From an uncultured bacterium (GTDB lineage: Bacteria > Methylomirabilota > Methylomirabilia > Methylomirabilales > CSP1-5): a stretch of DNA of 64,000 nucleotides. Both the position numbers and the translations under genes were made by a program. The notes below the pieces were generated by a model that saw nothing but the letters and a program-made list of their open reading frames with translations, was not told the origin of the DNA and searched no databases. The stretch lies in assembly GCA_964348275.1 (NCBI GenBank), contig CAYGBT010000007.1:3046-67045 (forward strand), in the 5' to 3' direction. Below, in pieces: positions 4,109 to 53,804 of the stretch; the first letter of the stretch is position 1; each line of letters opens with the position of its first letter.

Positions 4109-4109
<1 letters not shown>

Positions 4110-8615: not shown

Positions 8616-8654
8616 CAATCCGTGCTCCTTATACAAACCCCGTCAGCGACCGTG

Positions 8655-10845: not shown

Positions 10846-10930
10846 GGGGCAAAGGGCTATGCCAGTCCCGGTTCCATCCCGAAGACTGCCCGAAGCGTCA
10901 CATGTAAAGCTTTGACCCCTTACCTCCGTT
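10846..10930. repeat. R2-type imperfect-palindrome repeat
   Basis: Arms GGAGGGGGGCAAAGGG and CTTTGACCCCTTACCTCC pair with small bulges. The copy lies 50 nt downstream of the cytochrome c stop. Confidence 0.6.
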
Positions 10931-10974
10931 CAATGGGAATGTCAAAATGCAAGGATCGACCCAGACCCCACCTA

Positions 10975-11457
10975 CTACGAGGGTTTATAGGGTGGGACCG
11001 CTAGGGTTCGGATGTAACTCACCAGATTCCAGATCTCCTCATCTTTAAGTTGCCCACCCCACGGTGCCATCAGAGCGGATTTCCCCACGCTGGCGCCCCC
11101 CTCCTTGATGATTCTGAAAAGGAACTGATCCGACTTGGCGTTGAGATCTTTCCCATCGGTGAGGTTCGTGACCTTCACCGGAAGCGCGGCCGCCGCTGGG
11201 CCATCTCCCTTGCCGGTGTTCCCATGGCACGAGGTGCAGAGGACAGCATACGTCCTCTTCCCTTCCTCGGGATCCCCCGCTTCTTCGACTTTCTTACTAA
11301 CCTTTTCGGTTGCCTCCTCGACTTTCTTGACACCTTCACTTGCTTTGTCGACCTTCTGAACGGTTTGTTCCGGCGGCCTCTCCTCTCCACAACCGCTAAG
11401 CGCGATCACCACCAATCCTGTGCAAAACATAAAAAACAGTTTCTTGTAAATCGCCAT
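10975..11457 (-). CDS. Monohaem c-type cytochrome lipoprotein
   Basis: CTSCHG haem motif, lipobox LSGC, and ATG at 11457 with AAGGAG 6 nt upstream. Confidence 0.85.
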   Translation of the reverse strand: MAIYKKLFFMFCTGLVVIALSGCGEERPPEQTVQKVDKASEGVKKVEEATEKVSKKVEEAGDPEEGKRTYAVLCTSCHGNTGKGDGPAAAALPVKVTNLTDGKDLNAKSDQFLFRIIKEGGASVGKSALMAPWGGQLKDEEIWNLVSYIRTLAVPPYKPS

Positions 11458-11824
11458 ACTGATCTCCTTGTGTCGTGATCGACGATACGGGGGCGCGTGA
11501 CGTGAATGATTCGTCCGTCGGTGAAGAGTACCAGTCACATCACGAAGATGGACGTTTACCGAACGACCTCAGACAGTTGTCGGCATCCTCGACAAACTTC
11601 CTGCTTCATCTTTACATTGTAACCAGACCGAGAGGACGTCAAGGCCCCTGTCACGACAAATGTGTATACCGGACAATCTCCTTGCGGGACCTGATGTATG
11701 TCAAACGTGAGGCTGTCCGACATCAGGAAAGGGGAAAATTCGATTCTGGGAAGGCGGCCAGAATGTATCTCAGGCCGTGGTTCGGCTGTCAAGGAGTGTT
11801 AATGATTGGTGTGCCGTCGGTTTC

Positions 11825-11870
11825 GCCGGAGCGGGGCGCAGGGCTATGCCGATCCTGGTTCCATCGGTAC
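11825..11870. repeat. R2-type repeat fragment fused to an R1 copy
   Basis: GCCGGAGCGGGGCGCAGGGCTATGCCGATCCTGGTTCCATCGG. Confidence 0.5.
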
Positions 11871-11880
11871 TACCCGCCAC

Positions 11881-11945
11881 GGGCTATGCGCTATAAGCCA
11901 TGCGCCTTCCTTGGGAATGTCAAAATTCAAGACCTGACCCCATCG
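11881..11945. repeat. R1-type intergenic repeat
   Basis: GGGCTATGCGCTATAAGCCATGCGCC..GTCAAAATTCAAGACCTGACCCC. Confidence 0.6.
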
Positions 11946-12107
11946 CATGACCCCATCGCAGGGACCCCATCGCAGGTTCCATCCACGCGCGTAGGAAGGC
12001 TGGGCACGAACTGGACGGCGAGACGGCAGCGCGGGAACGGAGGTATTAGTCAACCAAGGACTTGACCCCACCCACTTACGAGCGCCGGGGCGCGGGACCT
12101 TCGGGTG

Positions 12108-12305
12108 CTAGCAGCATTTCACCCCCATTTGCTCAGTCATTTCCCGGCAAGTTGCCCACGGGTCCCCACCACCTTCGATCTTCGCCATCATTGCATTGAG
12201 CAAGCCGACATAGGCGGTCGTGTTGACCAGGAGTCCGTCGCGGATGGCTTCCTGTTCCTCTGGCGACACCTCGGTGAACGCTTTGAGGAAATCTTCTCCC
12301 TTCAC
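12108..12305 (-). CDS. Small hypothetical protein (65 aa, ends in CC)
   Basis: GTG start preceded by GGAGGAAACTAG. Confidence 0.5.
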   Translation of the reverse strand: MKGEDFLKAFTEVSPEEQEAIRDGLLVNTTAYVGLLNAMMAKIEGGGDPWATCREMTEQMGVKCC

Positions 12306-12468
12306 CTAGTTTCCTCCTTGGCGTCCACATGGGTTGGGGAACGCTTGAAGCTTACTTGCCTCGCCTACCCGTCGTACGAAATATGGCGCAGCAGGTGCGA
12401 GATTTCAACCCCTTCAAGTCAAAACGCCGCTGCGGGGTGTACATCGCCCGAGAAGGCGTCGCGTGTGT

Positions 12469-12520
12469 CAGAGGTGGGCGCAGGGCTATACCGATCCTGG
12501 TTCCATTACATCGATCCCCG
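12469..12520. repeat. R2-type repeat
   Basis: GGTGGGCGCAGGGCTATACCGATCCTGGTTCCATTACATCG, immediately downstream of the 12543 stop. Confidence 0.5.
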
Positions 12521-12542
12521 ACACTCTGAAGCCTGCCGGCCC

Positions 12543-12794
12543 CTATTCCTTCACAACGATGACGCGGCCTTTCTCGTTGACGTACACCCGATACGTATCG
12601 CCGGACGAACAACGGGCGAGGTAGTCGTTGTCGCCGAGCTTCTCGAAACTGACAACCTGCCCACAGGGCTTCCCCTGCAGGGCGATGACCGTGCTCAGGT
12701 CCTTGGCGATGTCTACGGGTTTGGCCTGCGCCATCAGGACCGTGGTAAATAGCACGGCTCCGAGCCAACATCCTCCGTTCTTCGTGACCCCCAT
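12543..12794 (-). CDS. Small secreted hypothetical protein
   Basis: ATG with AAGGAGAG 5 nt upstream; signal-peptide-like N-terminus. Confidence 0.6.
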   Translation of the reverse strand: MGVTKNGGCWLGAVLFTTVLMAQAKPVDIAKDLSTVIALQGKPCGQVVSFEKLGDNDYLARCSSGDTYRVYVNEKGRVIVVKE

Positions 12795-12818
12795 GGATCT
12801 CTCCTTTTCGGTGGCCGC

Positions 12819-13283
12819 TTATAGCCGAGTAAATTCCCTAGGATCGGCGAGCTTCGCCCATAAGATCTGCCGGGCCCTGGCGATTTCCTGGCCCAGCGGG
12901 GGATCCCCATCTTGCAACAAGGTGATGACCTTCATAAAGAGGAGATTGTAATGGTCGCGCAACTTCTCTAACGGCGTGTTCCCATCGCCGGCATGAAATC
13001 GGCGGAACCGATCCATGAGATCATCAATCTCATTTTTGAGCGCCAGCTTTGTGAAAAACCCGATCGCTTTGGTGGCCCGAAGGCGGGCCACGAGCTCATC
13101 AATGTTGTATTGCCCCGCGGCGGTGTCCGCAGGCGCCTCCTTCTCGGCCAGCTCCCGTACCGTGTCGTCGGCAGGAGTGCCATCGCAATCTTGTCCGGCG
13201 AAAGTCGCGGTGGCCGTCACCGTCACCACGAGAGTGGCAAGCGCAAGGAGGGTCAGATCTCGTAACGCCATGTTTTTTCCCAT
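12819..13283 (-). CDS. Secreted hypothetical protein
   Basis: 154 aa ORF with signal-peptide-like LLALATLVVTVTATATFA. Confidence 0.6.
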   Translation of the reverse strand: MGKNMALRDLTLLALATLVVTVTATATFAGQDCDGTPADDTVRELAEKEAPADTAAGQYNIDELVARLRATKAIGFFTKLALKNEIDDLMDRFRRFHAGDGNTPLEKLRDHYNLLFMKVITLLQDGDPPLGQEIARARQILWAKLADPREFTRL

Positions 13284-13352
13284 TACTTACCGGACGAAGT
13301 TCGATGGGTAAAAATTCTCCTCTGGCCCCAAATTCCGATTCTAGACGGACTA

Positions 13353-13381
13353 AGTATTCCCTGTCGGGCGAGGGGTGTCAA
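13353..13381 (-). promoter_or_regulatory. Putative sigma70-type promoter
   Basis: Minus strand reads TTGACA, 17 nt, AATACT. The flanking module GGGTGTCAAGGG..AAGGCGGG is shared with 5601-5635. Confidence 0.4.
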
Positions 13382-13470
13382 GGGCGCTGAAGGCGGGGGC
13401 GAGATCGCGGGAGAACCTGGGGCCTTATGATGCAGGGCACAAGGAGGTGACGCGGACCCCATAGCCGAAA

Positions 13471-14022
13471 TCACATGCCTGAAACCGTTCCTCGTTTCGG
13501 CCTCTCACCCTCGCCGAACGCCAAACAATTGCGATCAAACCATTTCTCATCTGCTAGAACCACGGAGATTTCGATTTGCCGGTCAGGGACCGTCCAGTAT
13601 TTTCTCAACAATCGATCCTTCTCCTGCGGGGAAACCAATCGAAATCCATGTTTTTCGTAGAAACGAATCGCCCAACCGGCATCTGCCCACGTGCCAAGTA
13701 AGATGGGGCGCGTCGTCTGCTTCCGAAGGAAGGAGAGCAATCTTTGCCCGATGCCCTGTCTGCGTTTGACCGTGCGCACATAGGCATGTCTGATCAGCGT
13801 GACATCCTGAACGTGTTGAATGCCCATCACCCCAACGAGTTCCCCGTCTTCCTCATATCCCCAGAACAGGACATCCTCGTCTTTCTCAGTCCGAAGCTCA
13901 TCTTCAGACATGTACGGCTCTTTCCAACAGTCGGCAGGAATCACGCCTTTGTACGCCTCGGCGGAATCATTGATGATCGCGTGAATCGTGGCAAAGTCGC
14001 TGTCGTCACACTCACGAATCAT
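13471..14022 (-). CDS. GNAT family N-acetyltransferase
   Basis: RRQGIGQRLL acetyl-CoA motif. Start is ATG 14022, with an alternative TTG at 14058. Confidence 0.85.
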   Translation of the reverse strand: MIRECDDSDFATIHAIINDSAEAYKGVIPADCWKEPYMSEDELRTEKDEDVLFWGYEEDGELVGVMGIQHVQDVTLIRHAYVRTVKRRQGIGQRLLSFLRKQTTRPILLGTWADAGWAIRFYEKHGFRLVSPQEKDRLLRKYWTVPDRQIEISVVLADEKWFDRNCLAFGEGERPKRGTVSGM

Positions 14023-14086
14023 ACCGATGGGCTCTTGCGAGAAGGCCACCCACGACAATCGCTAGGAGCTAAGTGTGCCGTCGATT

Positions 14087-14182
14087 GTGCCGGAGGGGGG
14101 CAAAGGGCTATGCGCTATAAGCCATAAGCCTTCCTTGGCAATGTCAAGATTCAAGACCTGAGCCCCACCCCTTGCCCCCAAT
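14087..14182. repeat. R1-type imperfect-palindrome repeat
   Basis: Arm GGAGGGGGGCAAAGGG pairs with CCCTTGCCCCC. The core is GCGCTATAAGCCATAAGCC..GTCAAGATTCAAGACC. Confidence 0.6.
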
Positions 14183-14453
14183 CTCTCTTTCTGATGTTTT
14201 ACACTGAACAACGTCCAGAGCTGCTTCGTGTTTTTGATCTGGGAAGCGATCTTTTTTCTAAATTTCGTAGCACATTGATTGTGAAGCCTTGCGCTGAAGA
14301 GAAAAAGCTAGAAAGCAACTCACGGGGAGGAACGTCCTTGAGCCTGCGTTCCACCTCACCTCTATTTCTTCGAGATAAAAGGCTATCGCTAGATAGAGGG
14401 CAAGGGGTCACAGGGGCAAGGGGTCAAGTCTTTTCTTGACTCACCTCCGCTGC

Positions 14454-14789
14454 TCACCCAAGCTGTTCCAGAATCGCCTTGACCTTCCGTTTGAGGTTCG
14501 GCAGTTCTCGGTCTATCACACGCCATACGATGTCCAGGTCGATCCCGAAATACTCATGCACCAAGACGTTCCGCATATCCATAATGTCCAACCATGGAAC
14601 CTCCGGGTGACGGTCCCGCAATTCCGGCGACAGGGCCCGAGCAGCCTCGCCAATGATTTGGATATGCCAGACCATCCAGTTTTGGATGAGTTCATCGCTC
14701 CGAAATGCTTTCTCCCCACGAACCGCGTAGCGCTCGATATGTGATATGGCTTGGAAGATATGTTCAAGGCGCCGGCGATCATCCCTCAT
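14454..14789 (-). CDS. hepT: HepT-like (DUF86) toxin
   Basis: RNVLVHEY (Rx4HxY) motif and a 4-nt overlap with the upstream MNT gene. Confidence 0.9.
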
Positions 14790-15076
14790 AGGGGCACGGC
14801 CTCTCTCAGGACCTCCTCACGAATAGATTCCCGCAACCCCTTTTCCGTAACCACGTCGACCCTTCTCCCCAGCAATTGATTGAGTTCCCGCCACAGGCCA
14901 GCCAGGTCGAAGAGGCTCCGCCCTTGATCCATTTCCACGAGCAAGTCGATGTCGCTGTCTCCGTCTGCCTCGCCGCGAGCCACTGAGCCAAAGATGCGCA
15001 CGTTCCGCGCCCCACGTTTCGCAGCGATGCGGAGGATTTCATCCCGCTTAGACTTTAATAGCTCTTCAACCGTCAC
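14786..15076 (-). CDS. mntA: MNT nucleotidyltransferase antitoxin
   Basis: [18 protein letters not shown] motif. Confidence 0.9.
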
Positions 15077-15171
15077 CGTCCAACTCCCTAGCGCCTTCTG
15101 TCATTGTATGGACGTTCACGCACATTGTAAGTGCTCGGGGCAAGGCCTTTCCGACACGGGCCCAGTGCCGG

Positions 15172-15351
15172 CTATTCGTCCTCGATATGGGCCTTGATCA
15201 TTTCGATAAGCTCGGGCGTGACCTCGACGATGCCGTGCTCTTTCGCATGGGCCTTGGCATTCTTCAACAGCTCTTCTTGCGTTTCGCCCCGGACGACGTG
15301 GCCGCAACCGCTGGCTGGGTTCACCTTGCTGCAGTCAATGATTTTCCCCAT
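15172..15351 (-). CDS. DUF1059 small protein
   Basis: 59 aa MGKIIDCSKV..GCGHVVRGETQEELL..HAKEHG; ATG with AGGAGGG 6 nt upstream. Confidence 0.8.
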   Translation of the reverse strand: MGKIIDCSKVNPASGCGHVVRGETQEELLKNAKAHAKEHGIVEVTPELIEMIKAHIEDE

Positions 15352-15505
15352 GAGGGTCCCTCCTGGTGTGAGACGACTTCGGATTGCGATTTGCAGATTG
15401 CGAATTTCTCGCCCCACCGATTCCGAAATCCGAAATTCCCCTTTTCCCTGACCGAATTCGCCCTTCGGCCCACTCGATGACCGCCTCGGCGATCGCGAGG
15501 GCCTT

Positions 15506-15637
15506 TTAGTACTCCTCCTGTGTAACCGGTTCAGCAAGGTCCGGGTAGCGCGTGACGATCGCAAAGCGAGTCAGGCGGCGGAGAAAGCGATCAAGGCTGT
15601 TCTCCTGCACCTGAGGATTTCGTTCCCGTACACTCAC
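15506..15637 (-). pseudogene. Remnant of a HEPN-domain partner of the upstream nucleotidyltransferase
   Basis: A 43-codon ORF whose GTG overlaps the MNT stop (GTGA), ending ..AIVTRYPDLAEPVTQEEY like a HEPN C-terminus. Further HEPN-like sequence continues upstream in this frame without a start codon. Confidence 0.35.
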
Positions 15638-16047
15638 GATCTGAGAGCGCTGCTCCGACTCCTGAAGAATGCAGGGGAAGCTGTCCCTGCGGAAGTGGAG
15701 GAGGCGGCATATACCACCTTTCCTTCCGTCAGGGCGGGATGAATCACTAATGCCGGATCATCACGATGCTTCCCAACATCTTCAGAGGTGACCACGACGA
15801 CATCGACTCCCCTGCGCACGCCTTTCAGATTCATGAAGTTCATGTAAATCTCTTCTGTCAGGCGGCCCCGGTGAAAGTTTCCACTTTTGATCACCAGTAA
15901 GTCCACATCGCTGTTTAGCCCCATCTTGCCCCGGGCCGCTGAGCCAAAGAGGACGATTTTGTCCGACTTTGCCACCTCGACGATCCGCTGGATGATCTCG
16001 CCCAGCGTCTCCTGAGTGACTTTTTGATTGGCAATTGTTTTCTTCAC
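15634..16047 (-). CDS. Nucleotidyltransferase (MNT-like) domain protein
   Basis: LFGSAARGKMGLNSDVDLLV motif. I prefer the GTG at 16047; the ORF track start at 16161 lies in repeat DNA. Confidence 0.75.
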   Translation of the reverse strand: MKKTIANQKVTQETLGEIIQRIVEVAKSDKIVLFGSAARGKMGLNSDVDLLVIKSGNFHRGRLTEEIYMNFMNLKGVRRGVDVVVVTSEDVGKHRDDPALVIHPALTEGKVVYAASSTSAGTASPAFFRSRSSALRS

Positions 16048-18519: not shown

Positions 18520-19500
18520 TCAGTCCTTGTGGTGACCCTTTACCTTGTAGGCCCCAGGTCCCAGGTCGAGGTCGATTTCCGCCCAGATCGTCAGTTGCAC
18601 CCGTTCTTTCTGTGGGGGATCCGTCTTGATTATGATGGTCCGAAAGAACTTCCCGGATGGCTCTTCGTGCAAGTTCGGGTCAAACTCCACCAGCAGCACC
18701 GCTTCATCCCCGGGCTGAAGCCGCTTCTTACTCACGCGGGCTTCTGTGCATCGGCAGCTCGTCGGTGTGCTCGTAATGGTGATCAGCTGCTCCCCGGCAT
18801 AGAGAAACGGAAACTCGTGTTTGACGATCCCCCCACTCTGTTTGACCACGCCGAAGTCGTATTCCGTCTCGGCGAAACGGAAATTGCCGATTCCATTGTT
18901 GTATTTTGCGTCCCTGCTGACTTTCATGAAATCCTCTTCCGACAGCACGTTCCCCCGAACCCGGAGTTCAGCGACCGTGCCGTTTCTGATCGTTCGCATC
19001 GTTCTGGACAACCGGCCTTCCGGAGGAGCACTTGTTACCAGATACACCGCTCTCATGATCCGTCCCACATCGTCCGGTCCGTGGAAGAGCGGATCGAACT
19101 CTACATTGACTGTGAAACGTTCCCCGGGCTTGACGGCGCGATGCCAATTTTTCGGGACGTCCATCCCGAAAGCGGGAGAGACATCGCCATCGGCAAGCGC
19201 GATGGTTGCTTTGGTGCAGCCGCACGAGGTAAACGCGCCCTTGAGGATCAGATCCTCGCTTCCGCCGTTTTGCAAGGTAAAGGTGTGCCGGACGTTTCCG
19301 CCTCGGATGTTGACATTCCCCCAGTCATGCTCCAATGTCTCGGCGGACGTGACCCGTCCCGAATTGGCAACCTGTGTTATTTCATCGCCTCCAGAGAATA
19401 CGCCGCTCACAACGAATGCAACGACGATCAATCCCATCGCAATAAGCAGAAAGAGGTTTCCCTTTGACATGGACCGTTTCTTTCCCTTGGATGTTTTCAT
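18520..19500 (-). CDS. DUF1573 domain protein (two copies of the domain)
   Basis: HDWGNV..FTLQNGG..L.I....TSCGCT and YDFGVV..H.F......L.I....TSCRCT. Confidence 0.85.
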   Translation of the reverse strand: MKTSKGKKRSMSKGNLFLLIAMGLIVVAFVVSGVFSGGDEITQVANSGRVTSAETLEHDWGNVNIRGGNVRHTFTLQNGGSEDLILKGAFTSCGCTKATIALADGDVSPAFGMDVPKNWHRAVKPGERFTVNVEFDPLFHGPDDVGRIMRAVYLVTSAPPEGRLSRTMRTIRNGTVAELRVRGNVLSEEDFMKVSRDAKYNNGIGNFRFAETEYDFGVVKQSGGIVKHEFPFLYAGEQLITITSTPTSCRCTEARVSKKRLQPGDEAVLLVEFDPNLHEEPSGKFFRTIIIKTDPPQKERVQLTIWAEIDLDLGPGAYKVKGHHKD

Positions 19501-19963: not shown

Positions 19964-20046
19964 GGTTCATGGTTCATAGTTCATGGTTCATAGCCGACAG
20001 TTCATGGTGGATGGTTCATGGTGGAGCTTGGAGTATAAGCCTATGG
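19964..20046 (+). repeat. Z module: GGTTCAT heptamer array plus unique tail
   Basis: An inverted copy lies at 36231-36312. A partner array CTGAACCATGAGCCGTGAACCATGAACC at 20050-20078 can pair with it. Confidence 0.6.
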
Positions 20047-20120
20047 ACCCTGAACCATGAGCCGTGAACCATGAACCAAGACGGTCATCGGTCGCCGCCT
20101 GAGCGGCTGGGTCTGTGAAC

Positions 20121-20756
20121 TCACTGTTGACTGCCCACTCGACGGGCAAGAACTCCCATCCAGGTGTAGCTCCCTGACGGCGGTACTTCAAAAAAAGTCA
20201 AATCTTCACTTAACCAATAGTGCGCCGTGAGGCCAAGTCGAGCGATTTCCTCCTCCACAAGGGGTTTGTCCACATCCTGAAATCCAGACAGCACTAGTGA
20301 GGTCTCGTCTCCACTCAACCGAACGAGGTCAGCCATTTTGTCGTTCAGTATGGGCATAGGTAAATTCGCCAGCACCAAGTCAAAAGGGCCAGCCACCGCC
20401 TCTACTGACCCTCGAATGAGCAGCAACCGGTCCTTCAAGTGGTTAAGCTCAGCATTCGCCCGGCTGGAGACGCAAGCCTGGGGACTGATATCGATAGCCA
20501 CGGCACGGTCCACCCCAAGTTTCAATCCTGCGAGCGCCAGGACCCCACTACCGCAGCCCACGTCCACCAGGGTTCGACACCGTCGTCGTTTGAGGTCTTG
20601 GAGCATGAGGCGGAGGCACAACTTCGTGGTGGGATGGCTGGGCGGGAAGGTTCTGCTGGTTTTCAGAAGAATCCCGACCGGGGCCCTAGAAACCAGAAAG
20701 CGCCACCAGGGAGAACCTACAGCGAAAGAGCCATCGATGCGGTAGCAAGTAAGCAC
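20121..20756 (-). CDS. PrmA-like class I SAM-dependent methyltransferase
   Basis: HPTT motif and VDVGCGSGVLALAG SAM-binding motif. Confidence 0.75.
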   Translation of the reverse strand: MLTCYRIDGSFAVGSPWWRFLVSRAPVGILLKTSRTFPPSHPTTKLCLRLMLQDLKRRRCRTLVDVGCGSGVLALAGLKLGVDRAVAIDISPQACVSSRANAELNHLKDRLLLIRGSVEAVAGPFDLVLANLPMPILNDKMADLVRLSGDETSLVLSGFQDVDKPLVEEEIARLGLTAHYWLSEDLTFFEVPPSGSYTWMGVLARRVGSQQ

Positions 20757-20849
20757 GACGTGACGTCATCGCGCACGGAAGGCATCGCGCGAGAAAAAAA
20801 GGGACCAGAATCTTGCCAATACCTTAGGGACTCGTGGCCTCCGTGTCAA

Positions 20850-20894
20850 CCCTTCGACGGAGCCTGCGCCGAGCTTAGTCGAGGAGCTCAGGGC
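20850..20894 (-). promoter_or_regulatory. R3 element abutting a -35-like hexamer
   Basis: CCCTTCGACGGAGCCTGCGCCGAGCTTAGTCGAGGAGCTCAGGGC; TTGACA (minus strand) is directly adjacent, then 17 nt, then TAAGGT. Confidence 0.45.
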
Positions 20895-20901
20895 TTGAAG
20901 C

Positions 20902-20937
20902 AAAAGCACCGGGGGGCTTTTTAGCCCGCCCGGTGCT
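20902..20937 (-). terminator. Terminator hairpin downstream of the RRM gene
   Basis: AGCACCGGGGGG..CCCGCCCGGTGCT with a T4 run on the minus strand. The same stem recurs at 24517-24555. Confidence 0.5.
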
Positions 20938-21003
20938 CCATTTGCTGCCGGACTCTCTCCTTTTAGCGCTTCGCCCGCCGGTCGGCCCGGGTTCACTCGG
21001 CCA

Positions 21004-21321
21004 TCAGTACCTATCCCGGCGGCCGCCGCGGCGGCCGAAGCCGCCACGGTCAGATCCGCGTCCCCGGGGCTGCTGCTCGCGGGCCATGTTGACCGTGAGG
21101 GTGCGCCCACCGACCTCGAAACCGTTCAGAGCATTGATCGCCGCCTGCGCCTCTTCTTGGCTGGCCATGTTCACAAAGGCGAAGCCGCGGGGGCGGCCGG
21201 TATCTCGATCGGTGACGATCTTGATTTCAAGCACCTCGCGGCCACCTTCCTCAAAGAGCGTGCGGAGTTGGTGCTCATCCACGCTGAAGGGGAGATTGCC
21301 CACGTACACTTTTGATCTCAT
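21004..21321 (-). CDS. RRM-type RNA-binding protein with a Gly/Arg-rich tail
   Basis: RNP motifs KVYVGNLPF and RGFAFVNM. Confidence 0.9.
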   Translation of the reverse strand: MRSKVYVGNLPFSVDEHQLRTLFEEGGREVLEIKIVTDRDTGRPRGFAFVNMASQEEAQAAINALNGFEVGGRTLTVNMAREQQPRGRGSDRGGFGRRGGRRDRY

Positions 21322-21380
21322 GCCTCTTTCTCCTTTTCCCGATACCGATCCTCGGTGCTGCTCTTGGCCGGACCGCGCTC

Positions 21381-21671
21381 TTACGGTCGGTCATCGTTAC
21401 GCTTGAGGGCACGGTTCTGTTGTTTACGACGCCGGCGAGCAGCCTCGCGAATCTTACGGCGCTTCCGCTCTCCTGGCTTCTCATAGCTCTTTTTCCGTTT
21501 TACATCCCGGAGGATCCCGTCACGTAGCACGAGGCGCTTGAAGGCGCGGAGCGCCGATTCGACCCCGCGTTCGTCCACGATGACCTCGAGGGGACGGCGA
21601 TGCCTGGGGTGCGCACGCGCCTCTCTCTCCTGGTCATCACGCCGCCGATACTCTGCCATTCTCCCTCCCAT
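21381..21671 (-). CDS. rpsU: 30S ribosomal protein S21
   Basis: ALRAFKR..LRDVKRKKSYEKPGERKRRK. The N-terminal extension makes the start uncertain (21671 or 21659). Confidence 0.85.
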   Translation of the reverse strand: MGGRMAEYRRRDDQEREARAHPRHRRPLEVIVDERGVESALRAFKRLVLRDGILRDVKRKKSYEKPGERKRRKIREAARRRRKQQNRALKRNDDRP

Positions 21672-21712
21672 CGCCTTCCATAGTCACAGGCTCGATCGCC
21701 CATAATTGGCAC

Positions 21713-21743
21713 AAAAAAACCGCGGGACTTCAGTCCTCGCGGG
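21713..21743 (-). terminator. Intrinsic terminator inside the rpsU upstream region
   Basis: Minus strand reads CCGCGAGGA-CTGAAG-TCCCGCGG followed by T7, about 40 nt before the rpsU start. Confidence 0.5.
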
Positions 21744-21790
21744 CTCGTTAACGTAAAAAACCGGATCCGTGAGAATCTACAGTCAAATCT

Positions 21791-21819
21791 ACAATAGATC
21801 TTTCTTCGGGTACTGTCAA
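21791..21819 (-). promoter_or_regulatory. Putative promoter upstream of the rpsU leader
   Basis: Minus strand reads TTGACA, 17 nt, TATTGT. Confidence 0.5.
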
Positions 21820-21984
21820 TTCCTTCTTTTTTCGCACGGGCGAGGCAGCCAAGACTAAGTTGCTGAAGAGCATATAGAGGTTTCACCCGAAGCTCGACGG
21901 GCGCAGAAGTGCAAAAGGGCTGAAATCTCTTGTTGACTAAGTCCTGCCTCGCCCCGGATCGGCGCAACCCGCGGACAGGGGAGG

Positions 21985-22506
21985 TCAGTAGCACTGCCGC
22001 TGCCAGGTGCCCGGCACCAGGACCTGATAATACGTGGTAAAGCCGTCCTGCTCTCGCGCCTGGACCTCCCACCGCTCCGCGACCCAGACATTGCGGCAGA
22101 CCGGCGCGACGACCGGGGGAGCGTAGACCACGCGGGGAGTGGTGAGGGCGTCGAGGACCAGGAACGTGGCCGCCCCGGCCACGAATCCCCCGAAGAAATG
22201 GCCGTGCCCATTGTGGTGGCGGTGGTGCCTGACGTATGTGCGGTGGCCGTGGTGCCTGACGTGTGTGCGGTGGCCGTAGTGCCTGATGTGTCTCTGCGGG
22301 CGGTGTCGCCTGACGTGTCTCTGCGGGCGGTCTTGCCTGACGTGTCTCTCTGGGCGGCGGGCCCGGACGTGTCTCTCTGGGCGGTGTTGCCTGACGTGTC
22401 TCTGCTGGCGGTAGCGCCCGTGATGCCGGCTTCTCGCCTCGGCCGGCAGACTCATCCCGCCCAGCATGAGACTCCCGATGACGAGGCCCACTGCTACGCG
22501 TCTCAT
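21985..22506 (-). CDS. Secreted His/Arg-rich protein, paralog 2, with an expanded 9-aa tandem repeat
   Basis: The signal peptide and C-terminal domain are collinear with 17927-18367. Seven to eight copies of a ~27 nt repeat lie at about 22226-22415. Confidence 0.7.
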   Translation of the reverse strand: MRRVAVGLVIGSLMLGGMSLPAEARSRHHGRYRQQRHVRQHRPERHVRARRPERHVRQDRPQRHVRRHRPQRHIRHYGHRTHVRHHGHRTYVRHHRHHNGHGHFFGGFVAGAATFLVLDALTTPRVVYAPPVVAPVCRNVWVAERWEVQAREQDGFTTYYQVLVPGTWQRQCY

Positions 22507-22599
22507 GATCCTCCTCTTTCGCTCATCCGGCGCCCGAGGGGGGGCCGGCGCAGGCCGGGGGTACATACCGCTCTACTTGCTTGGACGACGCCTCGTCGC

Positions 22600-22629
22600 A
22601 TTTTATTTCATCTTCTTATCCCTACGCAA
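22600..22629 (-). promoter_or_regulatory. Putative promoter of His-rich paralog 2
   Basis: Minus strand reads TTGCGT, 18 nt, TAAAAT. The ATGAAATAAAAT context is shared with paralog 1. Confidence 0.45.
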
Positions 22630-22630
22630 G

Positions 22631-22675
22631 CCCTTCGACGGAGCCTGCCCCGAGCTTAGTCGAGGGGCTCAGGGC
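22631..22675 (-). promoter_or_regulatory. R3 element abutting the -35 of paralog 2
   Basis: CCCTTCGACGGAGCCTGCCCCGAGCTTAGTCGAGGGGCTCAGGGC. Confidence 0.45.
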
Positions 22676-22777
22676 AAGGGGGGAGTCGATAGATTGTTGA
22701 GAGTCAAGGGTTGAAAGCTGAAAGCCACTACATAGCGGTGAGGGGAGAGTTGAGGGCAGTGTGCAAAATTTTCGCAC

Positions 22778-22805
22778 TTGACAGGTCAGGGCGCATAAAT
22801 ATATA
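22778..22805 (+). promoter_or_regulatory. Promoter of sRNA copy 3
   Basis: TTGACA, 16 nt, TATATA, preceded by GTGCAAAATTTTCGCAC. Confidence 0.6.
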
Positions 22806-22812
22806 TAAGGTA

Positions 22813-22993
22813 AGCCCCGAGAGGTTCGATCTGGTCCCCATAACCGGGTCTCGTGATCCGGCGGGAACGGCGCTTCCTGGAACTCGGGAAACCGAGATCT
22901 CACCTGCGGTCCTGGAGGAGCGGAGGGGAGACAAAACAGGAACCGGCCGCCAGAAGGGAGAGATCAGAAGGAATCACTTGGGGCTCAGTTTTT
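22813..22993 (+). ncRNA. Structured sRNA of unknown family, copy 3 (long form)
   Basis: Same closing helix and CCGGGTC-TCGT-GATCCGG hairpin, plus an inserted CTCGG-GAAA-CCGAG hairpin. It ends in T5. Confidence 0.6.
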
Positions 22994-23043
22994 GTTGAGA
23001 GTCTGGAGTCGAGAGATAACCGTTCGGAGTTCGGGCTTACGAG

Positions 23044-23100
23044 CAATTCGAAATCCGAAATTCGAAATCGGAAATCGGAAATCGGTCGTCGGTCGTCGGT
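23044..23100. repeat. Degenerate heptamer tandem array (TCGAAAT/CGGAAAT/CGGTCGT)
   Basis: Eight consecutive 7-nt units can be read directly. Confidence 0.7.
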
Positions 23101-23132
23101 TACCGCCAGGCGGGTTCACACTTCACGACTTA

Positions 23133-23719
23133 GAGTCCGAAGTCCAACGACAGAAGAGCAAGGGCTCGGTGGGACCTTCCTCGGCGGCGCCATTATTCTC
23201 CGATGACTTGATACGTAGAGGCCACGTTACGCACGTGTAGGCGTTGTCATTCGCCAGTGCGGGCCCCCCCACCCGCGCTGCGCTTCGGCGGCGGGACCCC
23301 GGCCGCACGCAAGCCAGATGTCGCCTGCCTCGGAAGGAACCCCCTCCTCGCCCTTCGTAACTTCGGTTGTCGGCCACTTGGTCCCGCCTTCAGAGTCGAG
23401 GGTTCAGCGTTACGAGCAATTCGAAATCCGAAATTCGATATCGGAAATCAGTGGTCGGCCATCGCTATTGCCCCCTTCGCGGCGGCGAGGGGAAGGCCGA
23501 CCTCGGAGGAAGGCGAAACTCGCGCCTCCGTAGAAAAGTCTTGGATCACAAGACACTCACGAACAACATCCGAGGTGCCAGGCGCCACCAACCTTCTCGG
23601 TCACAACACCGGCTTCCGTCCCGGTGCGCCAGGCCCAGGTGAGACCAACGCGCTTGAGCTGTTTCGCCGACGATGAGGAGGGCTTTCCCGAGTTGCCTCC
23701 ACCTACGTCGGACTTCGGC
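23133..23719 (+). repeat. B element copy 1 (~590 bp non-coding repeat, modules X-rev, spacer, Y)
   Basis: Collinear with the reverse complement of 36361-36960. The ends CCGAAGTCCAACG and CGTCGGACTTCGG are inverted. Confidence 0.6.
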
Positions 23720-23826
23720 GAGCGGTTCGGCCGATCTCACCGTCGAGGCCTCAGTCGAGCCGTCACCGGACATCGCTTACCTGGTTTAGGGCTCACAGAC
23801 GGTTCAGGGTTCAGAGTTTAATGATA

Positions 23827-23928
23827 GGGTCTTGGGTGTTAGGTCTTAGGTTCTGGGTGTTGAACCTGACATCTGAATGCCGAGATCTCCAAAACCCAAC
23901 ACCTAACACCCAAGACCTAATACCTAAC
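23827..23928. repeat. Inverted pair of GGTSTTR heptamer arrays forming a long hairpin
   Basis: 23828-23844 is the perfect complement of 23901-23917 (17 bp), with imperfect extension on both sides. Confidence 0.7.
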
Positions 23929-24026
23929 AGTGGTCGGAAAATGCCTACCTGGCTCAGGGTTCAGTGTAGAAAGCTAAGAGCGGAGAGTGGAGGGCTCAGA
24001 GCCCAGTGTCAAGTGGCTCGGAGGGC

Positions 24027-48015: not shown

Positions 48016-48750
48016 TCAGATTCCCCAGGCCCCGCTGAGCTGGATATTGGCGCCGTTGACGTACCGAGCTTCGTCCGAGAGGAGAAAGGCCGCCACGCCA
48101 ACCGCATCGGTGAGCGAGCCCACGTATCCGGCGGGGATCTTTTTCTCCATCGCCGTGAGCTCCTCGGGCGGAGCACTGCCCGAGTCAATGAAGCCGGGCG
48201 AGACCGCGTTGGCGGTGATGCCATGGGGGGCCAGGACCCTGGCCAGCGTCCGGGTCAGGACGAGCACGCCGGCCTTGGCAATATAATGGGCGGTGATCTG
48301 AGGCTGCGCGACGAGCTGATCGGCACTCGCCATGCTGAACGTGATAATACGCCCCCACTTTCGCTCGATCATCCCGGGGGCGACCAGGCGGCTGAGGTAA
48401 AAGATCGGATGGAGATTATTGCTGAACATCGCATGCCAGCCCTCGAGGGTCTCTTCGAGCAAGGGCACCCGGTGGTAGGGCCCCGCACAATTGATCAGGG
48501 CATCGATTCGCCCCCAGGAGGTTTGCACCTCACGGACCAATCGTAAAGCCGCCTCGGGGTCAGAAACGTCGGCCTGAACTGCCAGGCCGCGACCCCCTCT
48601 CTTTTCGATCGCCGCGACGGTCTCCTGCGCCTGGTGCTCGCTGCTGCGAAAGCAGACGGCAACGGACCAACCGGTCTCTGCCAGATACAGAGCAATGGCT
48701 CGCCCGATGCCGCGGGCTCCCCCTGTGATCACGGCCACTCGTTCCTTCAT
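48016..48750 (-). CDS. SDR family oxidoreductase (FabG-like)
   Basis: TGGARGIGRAIA and YIAKAG (YxxxK) motifs. Confidence 0.9.
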   Translation of the reverse strand: MKERVAVITGGARGIGRAIALYLAETGWSVAVCFRSSEHQAQETVAAIEKRGGRGLAVQADVSDPEAALRLVREVQTSWGRIDALINCAGPYHRVPLLEETLEGWHAMFSNNLHPIFYLSRLVAPGMIERKWGRIITFSMASADQLVAQPQITAHYIAKAGVLVLTRTLARVLAPHGITANAVSPGFIDSGSAPPEELTAMEKKIPAGYVGSLTDAVGVAAFLLSDEARYVNGANIQLSGAWGI

Positions 48751-48825
48751 CTTACATCCCCCACCGCGTTGTCGTGGCAGCCAGACTATAGGGGAATGAC
48801 CTAGGGGAGTCAAACGCGAAGCTAT

Positions 48826-48975
48826 CAGCAGATTTCGAATTGCGGATTTCGAGTTTCGGATTGAAAGGCAAGAGTATGCTTGGAAAATCCGAAATCCACA
48901 ATCGTTCGACTGAGGGCTACGACGGTGAGCTCGGCCGAACCGCTCACGACTCGAAGTCCCAAATCCGAAATTATG
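48826..48975. repeat. R5 intergenic repeat rich in ATTTCGAA/CCGAAAT words
   Basis: Shares ..TTCGGATTGAAA..CCGAAATCC.CAATCGTTCGACTGAGG..CACGACTCGAAGTCCCAAATCCGAAAT with 62905-63030. Confidence 0.5.
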
Positions 48976-49663
48976 GATGCGGGAGGAGAGGGGGGACTTC
49001 GGAGAGGTCCTTGACCTTCACGCAGTCCAGTACCGGCCAGGCACCCAGCGGATCGAGGAGAATGGCATCGAGTCCGGCGTTACGGGCTCCCACCACGTCG
49101 AGGCTGTAGAAATCCCCCACGTAGACCGCCTGCTCCGGAGCGACGCCGGTCCGCTCCAGGGCCAAATCAAATATCCCCGGATCGGGTTTCTCGATCCCCA
49201 CAATGCGCGAGTCTACGATGACGGTCAGGTGCGCCGTGAGGTTTGCCTCGGTGAGATAGCTTTCGACTCGCCCATCGGAGTTCGAGATCACTCCGAGCAG
49301 GTAGCCCCGTGCTTTCAGGTCGTCCAGCACCTCCCGGGCCCCCGGCATGGCACTCCCCCGCCAGAGGCTCTGCTGTCGGTCAATCTCTTGCAGGCGCTCC
49401 ATGGCCCGTATCGTCCTGTCCCCCCAGGCGATCCCGAGCTCCTCGCAGATGTGGCGCATATACCGCGCAAAGACGTTGTCGGATTGTCGACGCTGTACCT
49501 CAGCGAGAAAGGGATCGAGCGTGACTCGCGCCCGACACTCGGCCTGCCAGACCTCGTCCCGCCCGACCGCAAAGCCCTCCCGCGTGAGGGCATCCACGAT
49601 GGCGGCGTAGTTGAGACTGAGGAGGGTGTTGCCCGCGTCGAAGAAGACGGCCTTGCACGTCAT
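48971..49663 (-). CDS. HAD-IA family hydrolase
   Basis: FFDAGNTL motif and ATGA overlap with the upstream gene. Confidence 0.85.
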   Translation of the reverse strand: MTCKAVFFDAGNTLLSLNYAAIVDALTREGFAVGRDEVWQAECRARVTLDPFLAEVQRRQSDNVFARYMRHICEELGIAWGDRTIRAMERLQEIDRQQSLWRGSAMPGAREVLDDLKARGYLLGVISNSDGRVESYLTEANLTAHLTVIVDSRIVGIEKPDPGIFDLALERTGVAPEQAVYVGDFYSLDVVGARNAGLDAILLDPLGAWPVLDCVKVKDLSEVPPLLPHP

Positions 49664-50610
49664 CTCGGTCTCCTCACGGTGACGTCGTATAGCCCGCGGG
49701 CAAGGGTGAGGATCGTATCCCGCCCCTCGACTGCTGCTTGCCAGCGCACGGGGATCCCTGCGAGTCCGACCCGGGCACCACTCCAGGCCCCCGTAATCGC
49801 TCCGGCCGTATCGGTATCCCCCCCCGCTCGCACTGCAGCCGTCACCGCCACCCCGAAGTCATCGGGCGCATGGAAAAAGCAGAAGGCGGACCGCGCCACG
49901 GTCTCGACCACGTAGCCGCCGACCCCCAAGGCTTCGCTCGCCTGGAGCGGATTGACCTTGCGTCTCAACAGCTCCGAGCTCCGACGCAGGTTTTCAGCCA
50001 CGCGACTGCCAGCCACCACCTTGACCGTCTCCTGCAGCAGATCTCTTTCTGGCAACGCCCCTGCCACGAGGCGGGCGACGAGGAAGGCCACGGCCTGGCT
50101 TCCGGCAATTGCCTCGGCGTTTTTGTGCGTGATTTCGGCGTCGAGCGCGCACGCGTCCCGGAGCTTCTCCACGTCACCGTGATACAGAAGACCCAGCGGG
50201 GCAGCTCGCATGGCTGTCCCATTTCCCGCAGCTTGCTCACCCTCGATCCCGCTCTCCCGCCAGCTTGCTCCGGCCTCAAGGCGGTACAGCGCGTGAAAGG
50301 TGGTGGTGCCGATCCCCCGGACATCATCGGACTGAAACCAGCCGAGATACTCCCGCGCGATGTCTTCCGGGTCGGCCTGGCCCCGGTGAACGAGGCTGCG
50401 GGCGAGACAGAGACTCATCTGGGTATCGTCAGTCCACTGTCCGGCCGCGAGCCCCCGTTGGGTGCTCTCGTGAAACCCCTGCACTTGATCCAGCACGGGG
50501 CCCACCACCCAAGAGGGGAGTCCCTCGAAAGGCATCCCCAACGCATCACCGATGGCGAGACCCACGAGACAGCCCTGAAAGCGGTCCTCGAGGGACGGGG
50601 AGGTGGACAT
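49660..50610 (-). CDS. ADP-ribosylglycohydrolase family protein
   Basis: GLAIGDALG, TDDT and GGDTDT motifs. Confidence 0.9.
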   Translation of the reverse strand: MSTSPSLEDRFQGCLVGLAIGDALGMPFEGLPSWVVGPVLDQVQGFHESTQRGLAAGQWTDDTQMSLCLARSLVHRGQADPEDIAREYLGWFQSDDVRGIGTTTFHALYRLEAGASWRESGIEGEQAAGNGTAMRAAPLGLLYHGDVEKLRDACALDAEITHKNAEAIAGSQAVAFLVARLVAGALPERDLLQETVKVVAGSRVAENLRRSSELLRRKVNPLQASEALGVGGYVVETVARSAFCFFHAPDDFGVAVTAAVRAGGDTDTAGAITGAWSGARVGLAGIPVRWQAAVEGRDTILTLARGLYDVTVRRPR

Positions 50611-50634
50611 GAGACAGTTCCTTCATGCAGGACT

Positions 50635-51198
50635 TCAGTCCTCGGGTGGGGAAGTCAGGGCGGCCAGAACCTGGGGAAAAATCTCCTCGGTCCGTTTCCG
50701 CAAGTCCTCAGCCCGCAGGTTGGCAATCGGATGGGCAATGGCGATGATGGGGTACTTGGGCATCCCGAAGTTTTTGGCGTGATGACGGGCCACCTCGTTG
50801 AACTGCTCGGTCACGATGGTCGCGGTGACTACCCCCCGCTTCTCCAACTCGATGGCGTCGTGCAAACTGCCCGACGTGCAGGAGCCTCACCCGCCGACGG
50901 CAGTGACCACCAACTCGCACCCCTCTGCGAGTTCCTCGATCAGCTCGGGAGGCGCATTCTTCGCGTAGATCTCTTTCCGGCGCCGGATGACCGCCGCATA
51001 CTCAAAGCGCTCGATGAGCATCTCTTCGATCACCTCGAGGATCTCATCGGCCCGCTCCTTGCTGTTGTCCAGAAACCCGATGCGCTGTCCGCTGAGTTCA
51101 AGGACCCGGGGGGCAAGGGGAGAGGTCTCCGGCTCCTCTTCCGCGACCGGTTCAAGAAGGATCAACCCGGTCCGGGTCTTCTCAAACGGCATCTTCAT
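50635..51198 (-). CDS. UGSC-type selenoprotein (in-frame TGA at 50887-50889 read as Sec)
   Basis: Two same-frame ORFs are separated by only one TGA. The context is VTAVGG-U-GSCTSGS and a hairpin CGUCGGGCA-GUU-UGCACGACG begins 11 nt downstream. Confidence 0.7.
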
Positions 51199-51285
51199 CC
51201 TCCCAACGTCTCGAGTGATTCTTTCCGGGACGGCGATCCACCGTGCCCGATCAGATCAGCGGACCGACGGCCCGCATCAGTTCTC

Positions 51286-52389
51286 TCAGCCTTCGTCGCT
51301 ACACCCACCTGAGCCGTGAACGTGAACCACCTTGGTGACGGCCCGAGTTCCATGGGCACCCCACCCGGGAATGACCAGTGAGAACCGCCCCGCCGTCCCC
51401 CCGGCCACCATCACCAGGAGGTCTTCCGGCCTGTCCACGACGGGGATCCGAGCCGAGGGGTCATTCCGATCAACCCATCGCGGCCAGTATCGCTGCCAAG
51501 TAATGTCCCCATAATACTCACCAGCTCTGGTGAGCTCACCGACGGGTCTCCGCGCCTCCTGGTAGAGAAAGGCCTTCACGTCCTGCTTGTGCCATCCGTC
51601 AGCCGCGATGGTGGTGGCGTGCTCCGGACCGATCACCACTGCCATCTCGCCCCGCCTGTACATGGTGTTATTCCCCATGGTGGCCATGGTGTCCGCGACC
51701 GTGGTAAGGATCCCACGCGCGCTTCGGCTCGTATGGTCACTGACATTATGGGGCGCCTCGGCGGCAAAGACCGTCACGGTACTCTGCTCGGGATGGAACC
51801 CCCGTTCCACATGGAGCGGCTCCCAGGGGGAAATCTCCTCGTTTTCCGCGGTGCAATAGGTGTACTTCCCGGGATGACCGAAGGTAGATTCGTCGGTCAG
51901 CCCCGGAACCCCGCCGCCGATATTGATCATGCAGAGCCGGACCGCTCGTCCGATGGTCGCGTTGGCGCGATTGCCCTGCCCAAAGCAGTTCGGTCCGGCA
52001 TTGATCTTCAGGGCGCGGCGGACCGGACCGTTGATGATCAAGAGGGGGGCGGCAACGTGCGTTGTCACTTGAACCCCGTTGAGATTAAACGCCTCATCCG
52101 TGATCGCCTCGATCGCCGCAACCACCACCGCAAAGTATGCAGGCTCACACCCCGCCATGACGGCGTTGATTGCGATCTTTTCCAGGGTCGCCTTCCCGTA
52201 TCGTGGGGCCAGGATGCCGACGACTTCCCCCGGATCCCGATTGACCGCGGAGAGCATCGCCTCAACCCGCTCTTCGGTGGGAGGAACAACGGGGAGGCCA
52301 TCGGTCCAGCCGCGGGCATAGAACAGCTCGATCGCCTCGGAGTGATCCGCCGCCTCGATGCGCCTCGATTGCAGGGTCACGGTCTGCAT
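51286..52389 (-). CDS. Conserved hypothetical protein upstream of the selenoprotein gene
   Basis: 367 aa; ATG at 52389 with GAGGAG 8 nt upstream. I recognise no motif. Confidence 0.7.
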   Translation of the reverse strand: MQTVTLQSRRIEAADHSEAIELFYARGWTDGLPVVPPTEERVEAMLSAVNRDPGEVVGILAPRYGKATLEKIAINAVMAGCEPAYFAVVVAAIEAITDEAFNLNGVQVTTHVAAPLLIINGPVRRALKINAGPNCFGQGNRANATIGRAVRLCMINIGGGVPGLTDESTFGHPGKYTYCTAENEEISPWEPLHVERGFHPEQSTVTVFAAEAPHNVSDHTSRSARGILTTVADTMATMGNNTMYRRGEMAVVIGPEHATTIAADGWHKQDVKAFLYQEARRPVGELTRAGEYYGDITWQRYWPRWVDRNDPSARIPVVDRPEDLLVMVAGGTAGRFSLVIPGWGAHGTRAVTKVVHVHGSGGCSDEG

Positions 52390-52484: not shown

Positions 52485-52514
52485 TTGACACTTTTTGATG
52501 CCCCTGCCTATATT
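52485..52514 (+). promoter_or_regulatory. Putative sigma70-type promoter
   Basis: TTGACA, 18 nt, TATATT, 28 nt upstream of the 52542 start. Confidence 0.5.
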
Positions 52515-52541: not shown

Positions 52542-53804
52542 ATGCGCTTTCCACGCATGGCAACCATCGAGGCACGCCGCCGTGGGCCCGCCCTGGCCCA
52601 CGCCGCCCGTGCGACCGACCGCGCCATGACAGACCTGGATCTAGAGCAACGGATCCGTCCGGGACAGCGGGTGGCGATTACCGGCGGCAGTCGCGGCATC
52701 GCCGAGGTCGCCACGATCACCAGGACTGTCGTTACTGCGCTCCAAGCGCTCCAGGCCGAACCGTTCATCATCCCGGCTATGGGGAGCCACGGAGGAGCGA
52801 CGTCTGAGGGGCAGCGTCAAGTCCTAGACACCTACGGGATCTCTGAAGAGACCATGGGCGCGCCGATTCTCTCGTCCATGGAGGTCACCGCGCTCGGTCT
52901 CACCCCGGAAGGGATCCCTCTCTACCTGGACAAGCAGGCCTCGGAGGCGGATTGGATTCTCCTGGTGAACCGTGTCAAGCCACATACCGCCTTCAGCGGT
53001 ACAGTCGGCAGCGGCTTGCTCAAGATGATGGCCTTCGGGCTCGGCAAGCACCAGGGGGCTTTCACCTGTCACGAGGCGGTCATGCAGCACGGCTACGAGC
53101 GGGTCATCCGGTCGGTCAGTGCCGCGGTCGTCGATTCCGCCCGAATTCTCGGGGGGGTGGCCATCCTGGAAAACAGCGAGGGGGGCCTTGCCAAAGTGGT
53201 GACCCTGCCTGTCGCGTCGATGGTGGCCGGTGAAGAACGGCTCTTTCAACAGGCCCGGCGATGGGCGCCCCGGTTGCCCTTTGACGAGCTTGATCTGTTG
53301 ATCGTCGATGAGATGGGAAAGGATATCGCCGGGACCGGCATGGATACCAATGTGATTGGCCGCCGGTTCAGCCTGATCGAAAAGCCCCCTCGAAAGCCTC
53401 GGATCGCTCGGATCTTTGTGCGGGGGCTCACTAAAGAGACCCAAGGCAACGCCAACGGCATCGGGCTGGCCGAGTTTACCACCGAACGTCTCCTGCGGGA
53501 GATGGACCGCTGGGTCACCTACACCAACTCTCTCACGGCGCGCACCCCGGAACACTCGCGCCTCCCGGTGGCCTTTGCCAGCGATCGGGAGGTCCTCGAG
53601 ACCGCACTCAAGACCGTGCGGACGATAGCCCCCTGGAGCGCCCGGATTGTGCGGATCAAGAACACCCGGGAGCTCAAGACCATGCAGGTCTCCGAGACCC
53701 TCGTGCCCGAGGTCCGGGGACGCCGAGACCTCGTCCTCGCCTCGGAGCCTCAAGAGATCACGTTTGACCCAAACGGGAATCTTCCGCCATGGCTCGTCGC
53801 TTGA
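52542..53804 (+). CDS. Possible LarA-like/DUF2088 family protein
   Basis: 420 aa. The overall resemblance is recalled, not searched; the ORF itself is solid. Confidence 0.55.
   Translation: MRFPRMATIEARRRGPALAHAARATDRAMTDLDLEQRIRPGQRVAITGGSRGIAEVATITRTVVTALQALQAEPFIIPAMGSHGGATSEGQRQVLDTYGISEETMGAPILSSMEVTALGLTPEGIPLYLDKQASEADWILLVNRVKPHTAFSGTVGSGLLKMMAFGLGKHQGAFTCHEAVMQHGYERVIRSVSAAVVDSARILGGVAILENSEGGLAKVVTLPVASMVAGEERLFQQARRWAPRLPFDELDLLIVDEMGKDIAGTGMDTNVIGRRFSLIEKPPRKPRIARIFVRGLTKETQGNANGIGLAEFTTERLLREMDRWVTYTNSLTARTPEHSRLPVAFASDREVLETALKTVRTIAPWSARIVRIKNTRELKTMQVSETLVPEVRGRRDLVLASEPQEITFDPNGNLPPWLVA

Follow-up and report, generated by a model that had tools for sequence, protein, structure and literature searches.

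The stretch of DNA analysed here, 64 kb in length and referred to as the window, holds on its minus strand two open reading frames (ORFs) that lie in the same frame, are separated by a single TGA, and very probably form one gene for a selenoprotein of the UGSC family. The order on this strand is partner, UGSC, ADP-ribosylglycohydrolase, HAD hydrolase, SDR, and BacA, where the partner is a protein of 367 residues (P0157). On the plus strand, a LarA-type gene and a branched-chain-type ABC transporter are encoded divergently (Table 1). This local gene order is kept within Methylomirabilota, not beyond; the LarA-type gene lies beside the partner–UGSC pair in the loci L001 and L007, and is absent from this place in the distant loci.

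Table 1. Coordinates of the UGSC locus and its features, numbered from the first base of the window
Feature	Position	Strand	Remarks
UGSC-family selenoprotein gene, complete (predicted)	50635..51198	minus	187 codons including Sec; terminal stop TGA 50635-50637
Predicted Sec codon (in-frame UGA, residue 104)	50887..50889	minus	TGA kept in 13 loci; Cys column in six full-length homologues
TGC, Cys of U-G-S-C (UxxC), putative resolving residue	50878..50880	minus	kept in 12/13 loci; Ser in L005
Predicted bacterial SECIS hairpin	50856..50876	minus	5 bp + G.A mismatch + 3 bp; apical loop GUU (50865-50867); 19 nt from UGA to loop
Partner gene, 367 aa (P0157)	51286..52389	minus	87 nt upstream of the UGSC gene, same strand
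ADP-ribosylglycohydrolase	49660-50610	minus	
HAD hydrolase	48971-49663	minus	
SDR	48016-48813	minus	
LarA-type "nickel pincer cofactor-dependent isomerase, group 22"	52542-53804	plus, divergent	NF052515, 485 bits, cut-off 400
Promoter-like site	52485-52514	plus	11/12 sigma-70-like match, ahead of the LarA-type gene

Other features of the window lie apart from this locus. Short ORFs with a GC3 of about 0.55-0.65, versus 0.70-0.80 elsewhere, occupy ~7000-16000 and ~20000-24000, suggesting a compositionally different, possibly acquired segment. Two long ORFs overlap on opposite strands (3093-4430, plus; 3135-4286, minus), and the one on the plus strand, of 445 aa, has no Pfam match. The DUF1573 family (PF07610) is listed with Sec forms bearing a UGC motif, and its representative in the window (18520-19500, minus strand) was considered as a second selenoprotein and rejected, being a Cys form (..SCGCT.., ..SCRCT..) whose frame is closed off upstream by a TAG.

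A reading frame divided by one TGA

The first-pass annotation had joined both ORFs across the TGA into a single gene of 187 residues, and sequence and frame proved to be exactly as it described them. The frame runs on the minus strand from an ATG at 51198 to the TGA, is open again immediately after it (GGC TCC TGC ...), and closes at a second TGA, so that 103 codons, the TGA, and 83 further codons make up the 187 residues. The joined translation reads ..ELVVTAVGG-U-GSCTSGSLHDAIELEKRG.., and the peptide across the junction ..VTAVGG-U-GSCTSGSLHDAIELEK... The frame is already open from 50886, ahead of the listed second ORF (50635-50865), which was listed from an internal TTG (Leu) at 50865 because ORF lists begin at start codons. 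In a codon-usage scan of the six frames, this is the sole TGA junction with coding signal on both sides in the whole window, so it does not stand among a crowd of junctions arisen by chance.

At the other end of the gene, a GGGAGG motif (51180-51230 region, minus strand) abuts the first ATG with zero spacer. The motif is followed, after 6 nt, by a second ATG (51192), which is the more plausible start and would yield a product of 185 aa. With a probability of about 0.9, the locus is considered to hold one gene, encoding a selenoprotein of 185-187 residues that belongs to the UGSC family and in which the UGA is decoded as Sec.

The assignment to this family, one of the NCBI protein-family models, had been proposed in the first-pass annotation and holds against curated profiles. 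With Sec entered as Cys in the HMM scans, the joined protein scores 157.4 bits against NCBIfam NF041046, "UGSC family (seleno)protein" (curated cut-off 125, profile positions 2-147 of 147), and 180.6 bits against Pfam PF24696, "UGSC family" (cut-off 25, profile positions 2-171 of 172, residues 14-182), both matches crossing the TGA junction.

Conservation of the UGA across homologues

The nearest proteins in the databases, 68-84% identical, are all 102-103 aa long and end exactly at the TGA site. An exhaustive profile search with the N-terminal 102 positions as the profile returned 1,884 family representatives; among the best 150 of these, 138 have 125 aa or fewer and nearly all end in ..GD or ..GG, the residue before the Sec column, while the few full-length members among them read GD-C-GSC. 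Homologues ending at this position had been named beforehand as an outcome that would speak against a joined gene. The protein records are indeed short, yet the DNA continues in frame in all of the 13 loci that were read at this level, which comprise eight further distinct Methylomirabilota orthologues, an identical copy from another run (L013), a fusion-type paralogue, and three distant homologues, of which one is from Ammoniphilus resinae (Bacillota), one from a Tectimicrobiota MAG, and one from a further long contig. These loci are roughly 45-100% identical and span several phyla, and in 13 of 13 the TGA stands at the same codon and is followed in frame by GSC(T/V).. (for the variant L005, see below) and a conserved C-terminal half.

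The downstream half bears the marks of a coding sequence. Its variable columns fall at first, second, and third codon positions in 32, 24, and 62 of 83 codons, respectively, and its amino acid identity is 82.5% as compared with 75% for the upstream half; this codon-position bias, together with the higher conservation, shows that the downstream half is translated in this frame. Purifying selection after a UGA conserved in many members of the lineage implies, in turn, that the UGA is decoded there. A lone in-frame stop in one sequence looks like a nonsense mutation or a base-call error, and a pseudogene or a sequencing or assembly error could be imagined on these grounds; however, the same TGA codon recurs in 13 independently assembled loci from several phyla and selection continues past it, so that this explanation is effectively refuted.

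The Sec codon also has a Cys counterpart. In the alignment, the N-terminal half of the window protein ends at column 107 and its C-terminal half starts at column 109, whereas column 108 is Cys in six of six full-length homologues, whose motifs (CGSC, CGAC, or CSGC) place their first Cys at the TGA column. Homologues with either Cys or Sec at the site, which the first-pass annotation had proposed to look for, are thus found on both sides, with Cys in these six proteins and TGA in the 13 loci. The distribution is the classic one of Sec/Cys families, dominated by Sec, and matches the GOS data, where 255 Sec forms of UGSC stand against 21 Cys forms (PMC2398784).

These comparisons also bear on the view that the UGA is a true stop, which would leave an N-terminal protein of 103 residues and a separate C-terminal protein of 76 residues starting at the TTG. 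Two ORFs are called in every automatic annotation of the homologues, and the TTG lies only seven codons past the TGA. However, these seven codons encode the G-S-C motif that defines the family, which is conserved, and the supposed start is CTG in L005 and ATA in L014 (the Ammoniphilus locus). No Shine–Dalgarno motif precedes the TTG, where the conserved hairpin is found instead, and the Cys-form homologues are single continuous proteins. The internal stop, moreover, is TGA in every locus, while the terminal stops differ (TGA, TAA, TAG). Termination at the UGA is, on this evidence, extremely unlikely.

The expectation that standard gene callers would split the gene was borne out throughout: all the public assemblies examined, a GenBank-annotated Methylomirabilales MAG among them, show it as two ORFs, each recorded as a "hypothetical" fragment. 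The annotation error at UGSC genes is real and general, and since these genes are recorded as two fragments, protein databases mostly hold halves of the protein (138 of the best 150 representatives). The correct annotation would be one undivided CDS in which codon 104 carries a Sec exception. Among prokaryotic selenoprotein families, UGSC ranks with the most abundant.

One member of the set departs from the common motif. L005 (L005:755-1315, JGI 3300037479) keeps both the TGA and the hairpin, and reads U-S-S-S rather than U-G-S-C, with no Cys at +3; an adjacent partner and an ADP-ribosylglycohydrolase are also missing from this locus. Either its function has shifted or the copy is decaying.

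The hairpin and the decoding of the UGA

A stem-loop starting 11 nt past the UGA, within the spacing used by bacterial SECIS elements, had been proposed from the sequence. The hairpin (CGUCG-G-GCA-GUU-UGC-A-CGACG, running 50876-50856) does begin with the 11th base after the UGA, that is, after a 10-nt spacer. The bSECIS model demands an apical loop of 3-9 nt, a stem of 4-16 bp, 16-37 nt between the UGA and the loop, and an MFE of -7.5 kcal/mol or lower, with a G within the first two loop positions that is usually followed by G or U (PMC13188914). With a 3-nt loop, a stem of 8-9 bp, G followed by U, a UGA-loop distance of 19 nt, and -10.9 kcal/mol, the hairpin of the window agrees with all four published criteria, and the stem is continuous over 9 bp in L008, L010, L011, and L016.

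Its stability is not exceptional when compared with dinucleotide shuffles (z of -0.08 to -0.85 for the -10.9 kcal/mol of a 39-nt stretch), so the case for the hairpin rests on its position and conservation rather than on thermodynamics. Rfam returned no SECIS or other relevant family, either for the whole window at the gathering threshold or for 50600-51250 at E<=10; an sRNA match at E=8.5 in the latter region was dismissed as chance. The 90-nt "tRNA-Tyr" called by ARAGORN over the UGA and SECIS of the Ammoniphilus UGSC gene (L014:8339-8428, plus strand) is almost certainly a false positive arising from the stem-loops.

Evidence from conservation comes in two layers. Among nine orthologues, third positions vary in one of the seven hairpin codons versus 145 of 177 codons elsewhere (Fisher p=3.3e-4), and the single synonymous change within the hairpin yields a G.U wobble. 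The nine close orthologues alone give no covariation. When four divergent homologues are added, pair 14-34 occurs as C-G, U.G, or U-A, pair 21-27 as C-G or U-A, and pair 19-29 as G.A, G.U, or U-A, so that three of nine pairs are altered on both sides with pairing kept or gained among the 12 distinct sequences of this extended set. In the same set, 91.7% of the cells are paired as compared with 13-45% in slid controls, the loop bases G23 and U24 are invariant, and the covariation score, which rests on four cells in 12 distinct sequences, is reached by only four of 500 shuffles. The hairpin also encodes a conserved peptide (T/V-S-G/C-S-L/V-H-D), which partly confounds its conservation. Several of the pair-preserving changes are, however, non-synonymous, suggesting that RNA pairing is selected in its own right. 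Taken together, the third positions and the paired changes indicate, at a modest depth of 12 distinct sequences, that the hairpin is maintained by selection beyond the coding constraint.

Compared with the bSECIS consensus, exemplified by fdhF and fdnG from E. coli, the hairpin is likewise a stem-loop that follows closely on the UGA within the coding sequence, with a small loop and a G-U. Unlike the fdhF SECIS, it lacks a bulged U and has a very short loop of 3 nt, and it differs from the archetype in the G.A mismatch of its stem, which is G.U or U-A in relatives.

A rival reading is decoding of the UGA without Sec, through near-cognate Trp, Cys, or Gly or a reassigned code, since the inserted residue is not readable from the sequence itself. 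The window also shows no genes for Sec machinery: selA, selB, and selD are absent from the 25 ORFs scanned, among them every clearly coding ORF of at least 300 aa, and the window holds no tRNA. Neither these genes nor a tRNA-Sec were found in the homologous loci. Against this view, TGA is the commonest normal stop, ending 12 of the 21 Pfam-supported window genes tallied as well as the UGSC gene itself, so that the code is the standard one and a reassignment is excluded. The site is also aligned with a redox Cys, as is characteristic of Sec/Cys pairs, and followed at the right distance by a conserved hairpin with the properties of a bSECIS, and Methylomirabilota have been reported to be rich in selenoproteins. 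Thus, read-through without Sec is very unlikely.

Insertion of Sec remains the preferred reading, and the literature gives strong indirect support for the use of Sec in Methylomirabilota. MAGs of this phylum are reported to carry large predicted selenoproteomes, one of them with 63 selenoprotein genes (PMC13188914, citing Deng et al. 2026), and Sec-type [NiFeSe] hydrogenases have been described in it (PMC13582414). Collinearity with Methylomirabilales MAG loci ties the window to the phylum.

Partner protein, fold and relation to known systems

To our knowledge, neither the UGSC family nor that of the partner has a characterised member. The fold of UGSC was approached through a Cys-form homologue, P0006 (~36% identical), which was modelled with AlphaFold with both halves of the window protein in the alignment. 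The model (pLDDT 86.7, pTM 0.80) consists of five beta-alpha units and places the C/U-G-S-C motif where strand beta3 ends and helix alpha3 begins. The top 50 Foldseek matches, with TM values of 0.35-0.51, are generic alpha/beta domains such as those of flavodoxin, lumazine synthase, and B12-binding proteins, and none of them has the Trx fold; a sequence search of the PDB with UGSC gave only noise. The model points to a five-stranded flavodoxin-like alpha/beta fold, not a thioredoxin-like one. A "Trx-like fold" was suggested for UGSC in 2008 (PMC2398784), and the flavodoxin-like matches, together with the lack of Trx-fold proteins among them, do not support this suggestion. The thioredoxin fold was rejected on topology as well, since it has a mixed beta-sheet with CxxC after beta1, whereas the P0006 model is a beta-alpha repeat with the motif after beta3.

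Redox-active pairs usually take this geometry, with Sec-x-x-Cys placed where a helix starts, and for this reason a selenenylsulfide cycle is proposed as the most likely chemistry of the U-G-S-C pair. UGSC and the upstream partner would probably be co-transcribed, given their common strand and the 87-nt gap. At UGA codon 104, the ribosome would meet the hairpin 10 nt downstream, whose G-U-U loop would recruit SelB.GTP.Sec-tRNA(Sec) as in the standard bacterial mechanism. Sec would then be inserted in place of termination, and the remaining 83 codons would be translated before the real stop is reached. In the folded protein, Sec would sit at the end of beta3 and the N-terminus of alpha3, with the Cys three residues on, and both would act as a selenol/thiol pair cycling through the selenenylsulfide. 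UGSC would in this way serve as the small redox subunit of a module of two proteins, together with the 367-residue partner. The U-S-S-S motif of L005, without Cys at +3, indicates that a selenenylsulfide with that Cys is not universal.

The family of the partner is very large, comprising at least 8,000 clusters in the homologue search. The partner itself matches no Pfam (even at E<=10) or NCBIfam family, and the 120 homologues listed are all unnamed or "hypothetical", none with a Pfam domain for the partner part. Its AlphaFold model (pLDDT 85.4, pTM 0.88) has no relatives in the PDB, neither by sequence nor by fold; class I fumarate hydratase, the best Foldseek match, was rejected as a partner fold, since TM values of 0.25-0.30 are too weak. 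The residues C81, C179, H172, K175, H214, and H257 are invariant.

The partner adjoins the split UGSC gene in 12 loci of several phyla, comprising all the Methylomirabilota loci with enough upstream sequence, except L005, plus the three distant loci. In addition, at least 13 proteins are fusions of partner and UGSC; they have 423-474 aa, carry PF24696, and each ends in ..AVVTAIGD, at the Sec codon. In the DNA of a fusion gene, a TGA, a continuing frame, and a perfect 9-bp form of the same hairpin are found. Adjacency and fusion argue that partner and UGSC work together. The GOS paper describes UGSC fused to an "Unknown_1" domain (PMC2398784), which may correspond to the partner family of the window.

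From adjacency and fusion, and with Cys81, Cys179, and several His, Lys, and Glu residues conserved, the partner is suggested to carry the substrate site. The outer neighbours at the three distant loci differ, with an amidase and a short-chain-acid transporter in one, an acyl-CoA ligase in another, and a CoA transferase and a TRAP transporter in the third. In a tentative reading, which we hold to be possible rather than probable, UGSC and the partner form a widespread, sometimes fused, two-component selenoenzyme with a new catalytic fold, in which the partner would bind the substrate, a small organic acid or amide, and UGSC would be a dedicated flavodoxin-like selenol/thiol subunit. The context of transporters, CoA ligases and transferases, amidases, and the LarA-type nickel-pincer isomerase is what points to an acid or amide. 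If this holds true, the pair would represent a new class of selenium-dependent enzyme and not one more thiol oxidoreductase. The ADP-ribosylglycohydrolase is reduced to a remnant of ~90 aa (residues 1-58 and 267-296) in L001 (L001:6767-7039, Methylomirabilales MAG GCA_046758825.1), so that this neighbour is dispensable for the module. The pairing and fusion across phyla with a large family that lacks a profile model, as well as the flavodoxin-like model, provide concrete starting points for the function of UGSC.

Among known systems, the closest is the UGSC family itself. Zhang and Gladyshev reportedly described a "UGSC-containing protein" in the Olavius symbiont in 2007 and then in the GOS data in 2008. 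The window gene shares with this family the U-G-S-C at the Sec/Cys column, the dominance of Sec, and the SECIS directly downstream; nothing essential differs, and it represents the Methylomirabilota orthologue. It is an established selenoprotein family, whose Sec forms far outnumber the Cys forms (PMC2398784, PMC13188914). The window gene is, then, a routine member of a family known since 2005-2008, and the Sec call adds nothing new, because the family has been catalogued since those years and is covered by curated HMMs. The points worth carrying forward are the unmodelled partner family and the non-thioredoxin fold.

Like the UxxC/CxxU oxidoreductases (Trx-like, Prx-like, and DsbA-like selenoproteins), UGSC is predicted to hold its Sec-x-x-Cys at the N-terminus of a helix that follows a beta-strand. 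Unlike them, its sheet is modelled as parallel, five-stranded, and flavodoxin-like, without any sequence or structural match to Trx-fold proteins. An analogy, and only an analogy, can be drawn with GrdA/GrdB of glycine reductase and PrdB of D-proline reductase, where a Sec protein is likewise encoded beside a larger partner and bears a UxxC-type motif, PrdB being entered as UxxC in the GOS paper (PMC2398784). Kinship of UGSC with GrdB/PrdB or with Trx was rejected, as Pfam at E<=10 returned only PF24696 and no GrdB/PrdB chain appeared among the fold matches. Unlike the Grd and Prd systems, with which it has no detectable homology, the UGSC module has a partner that is unrelated to GrdE/PrdA as far as tested, with zero Pfam matches.
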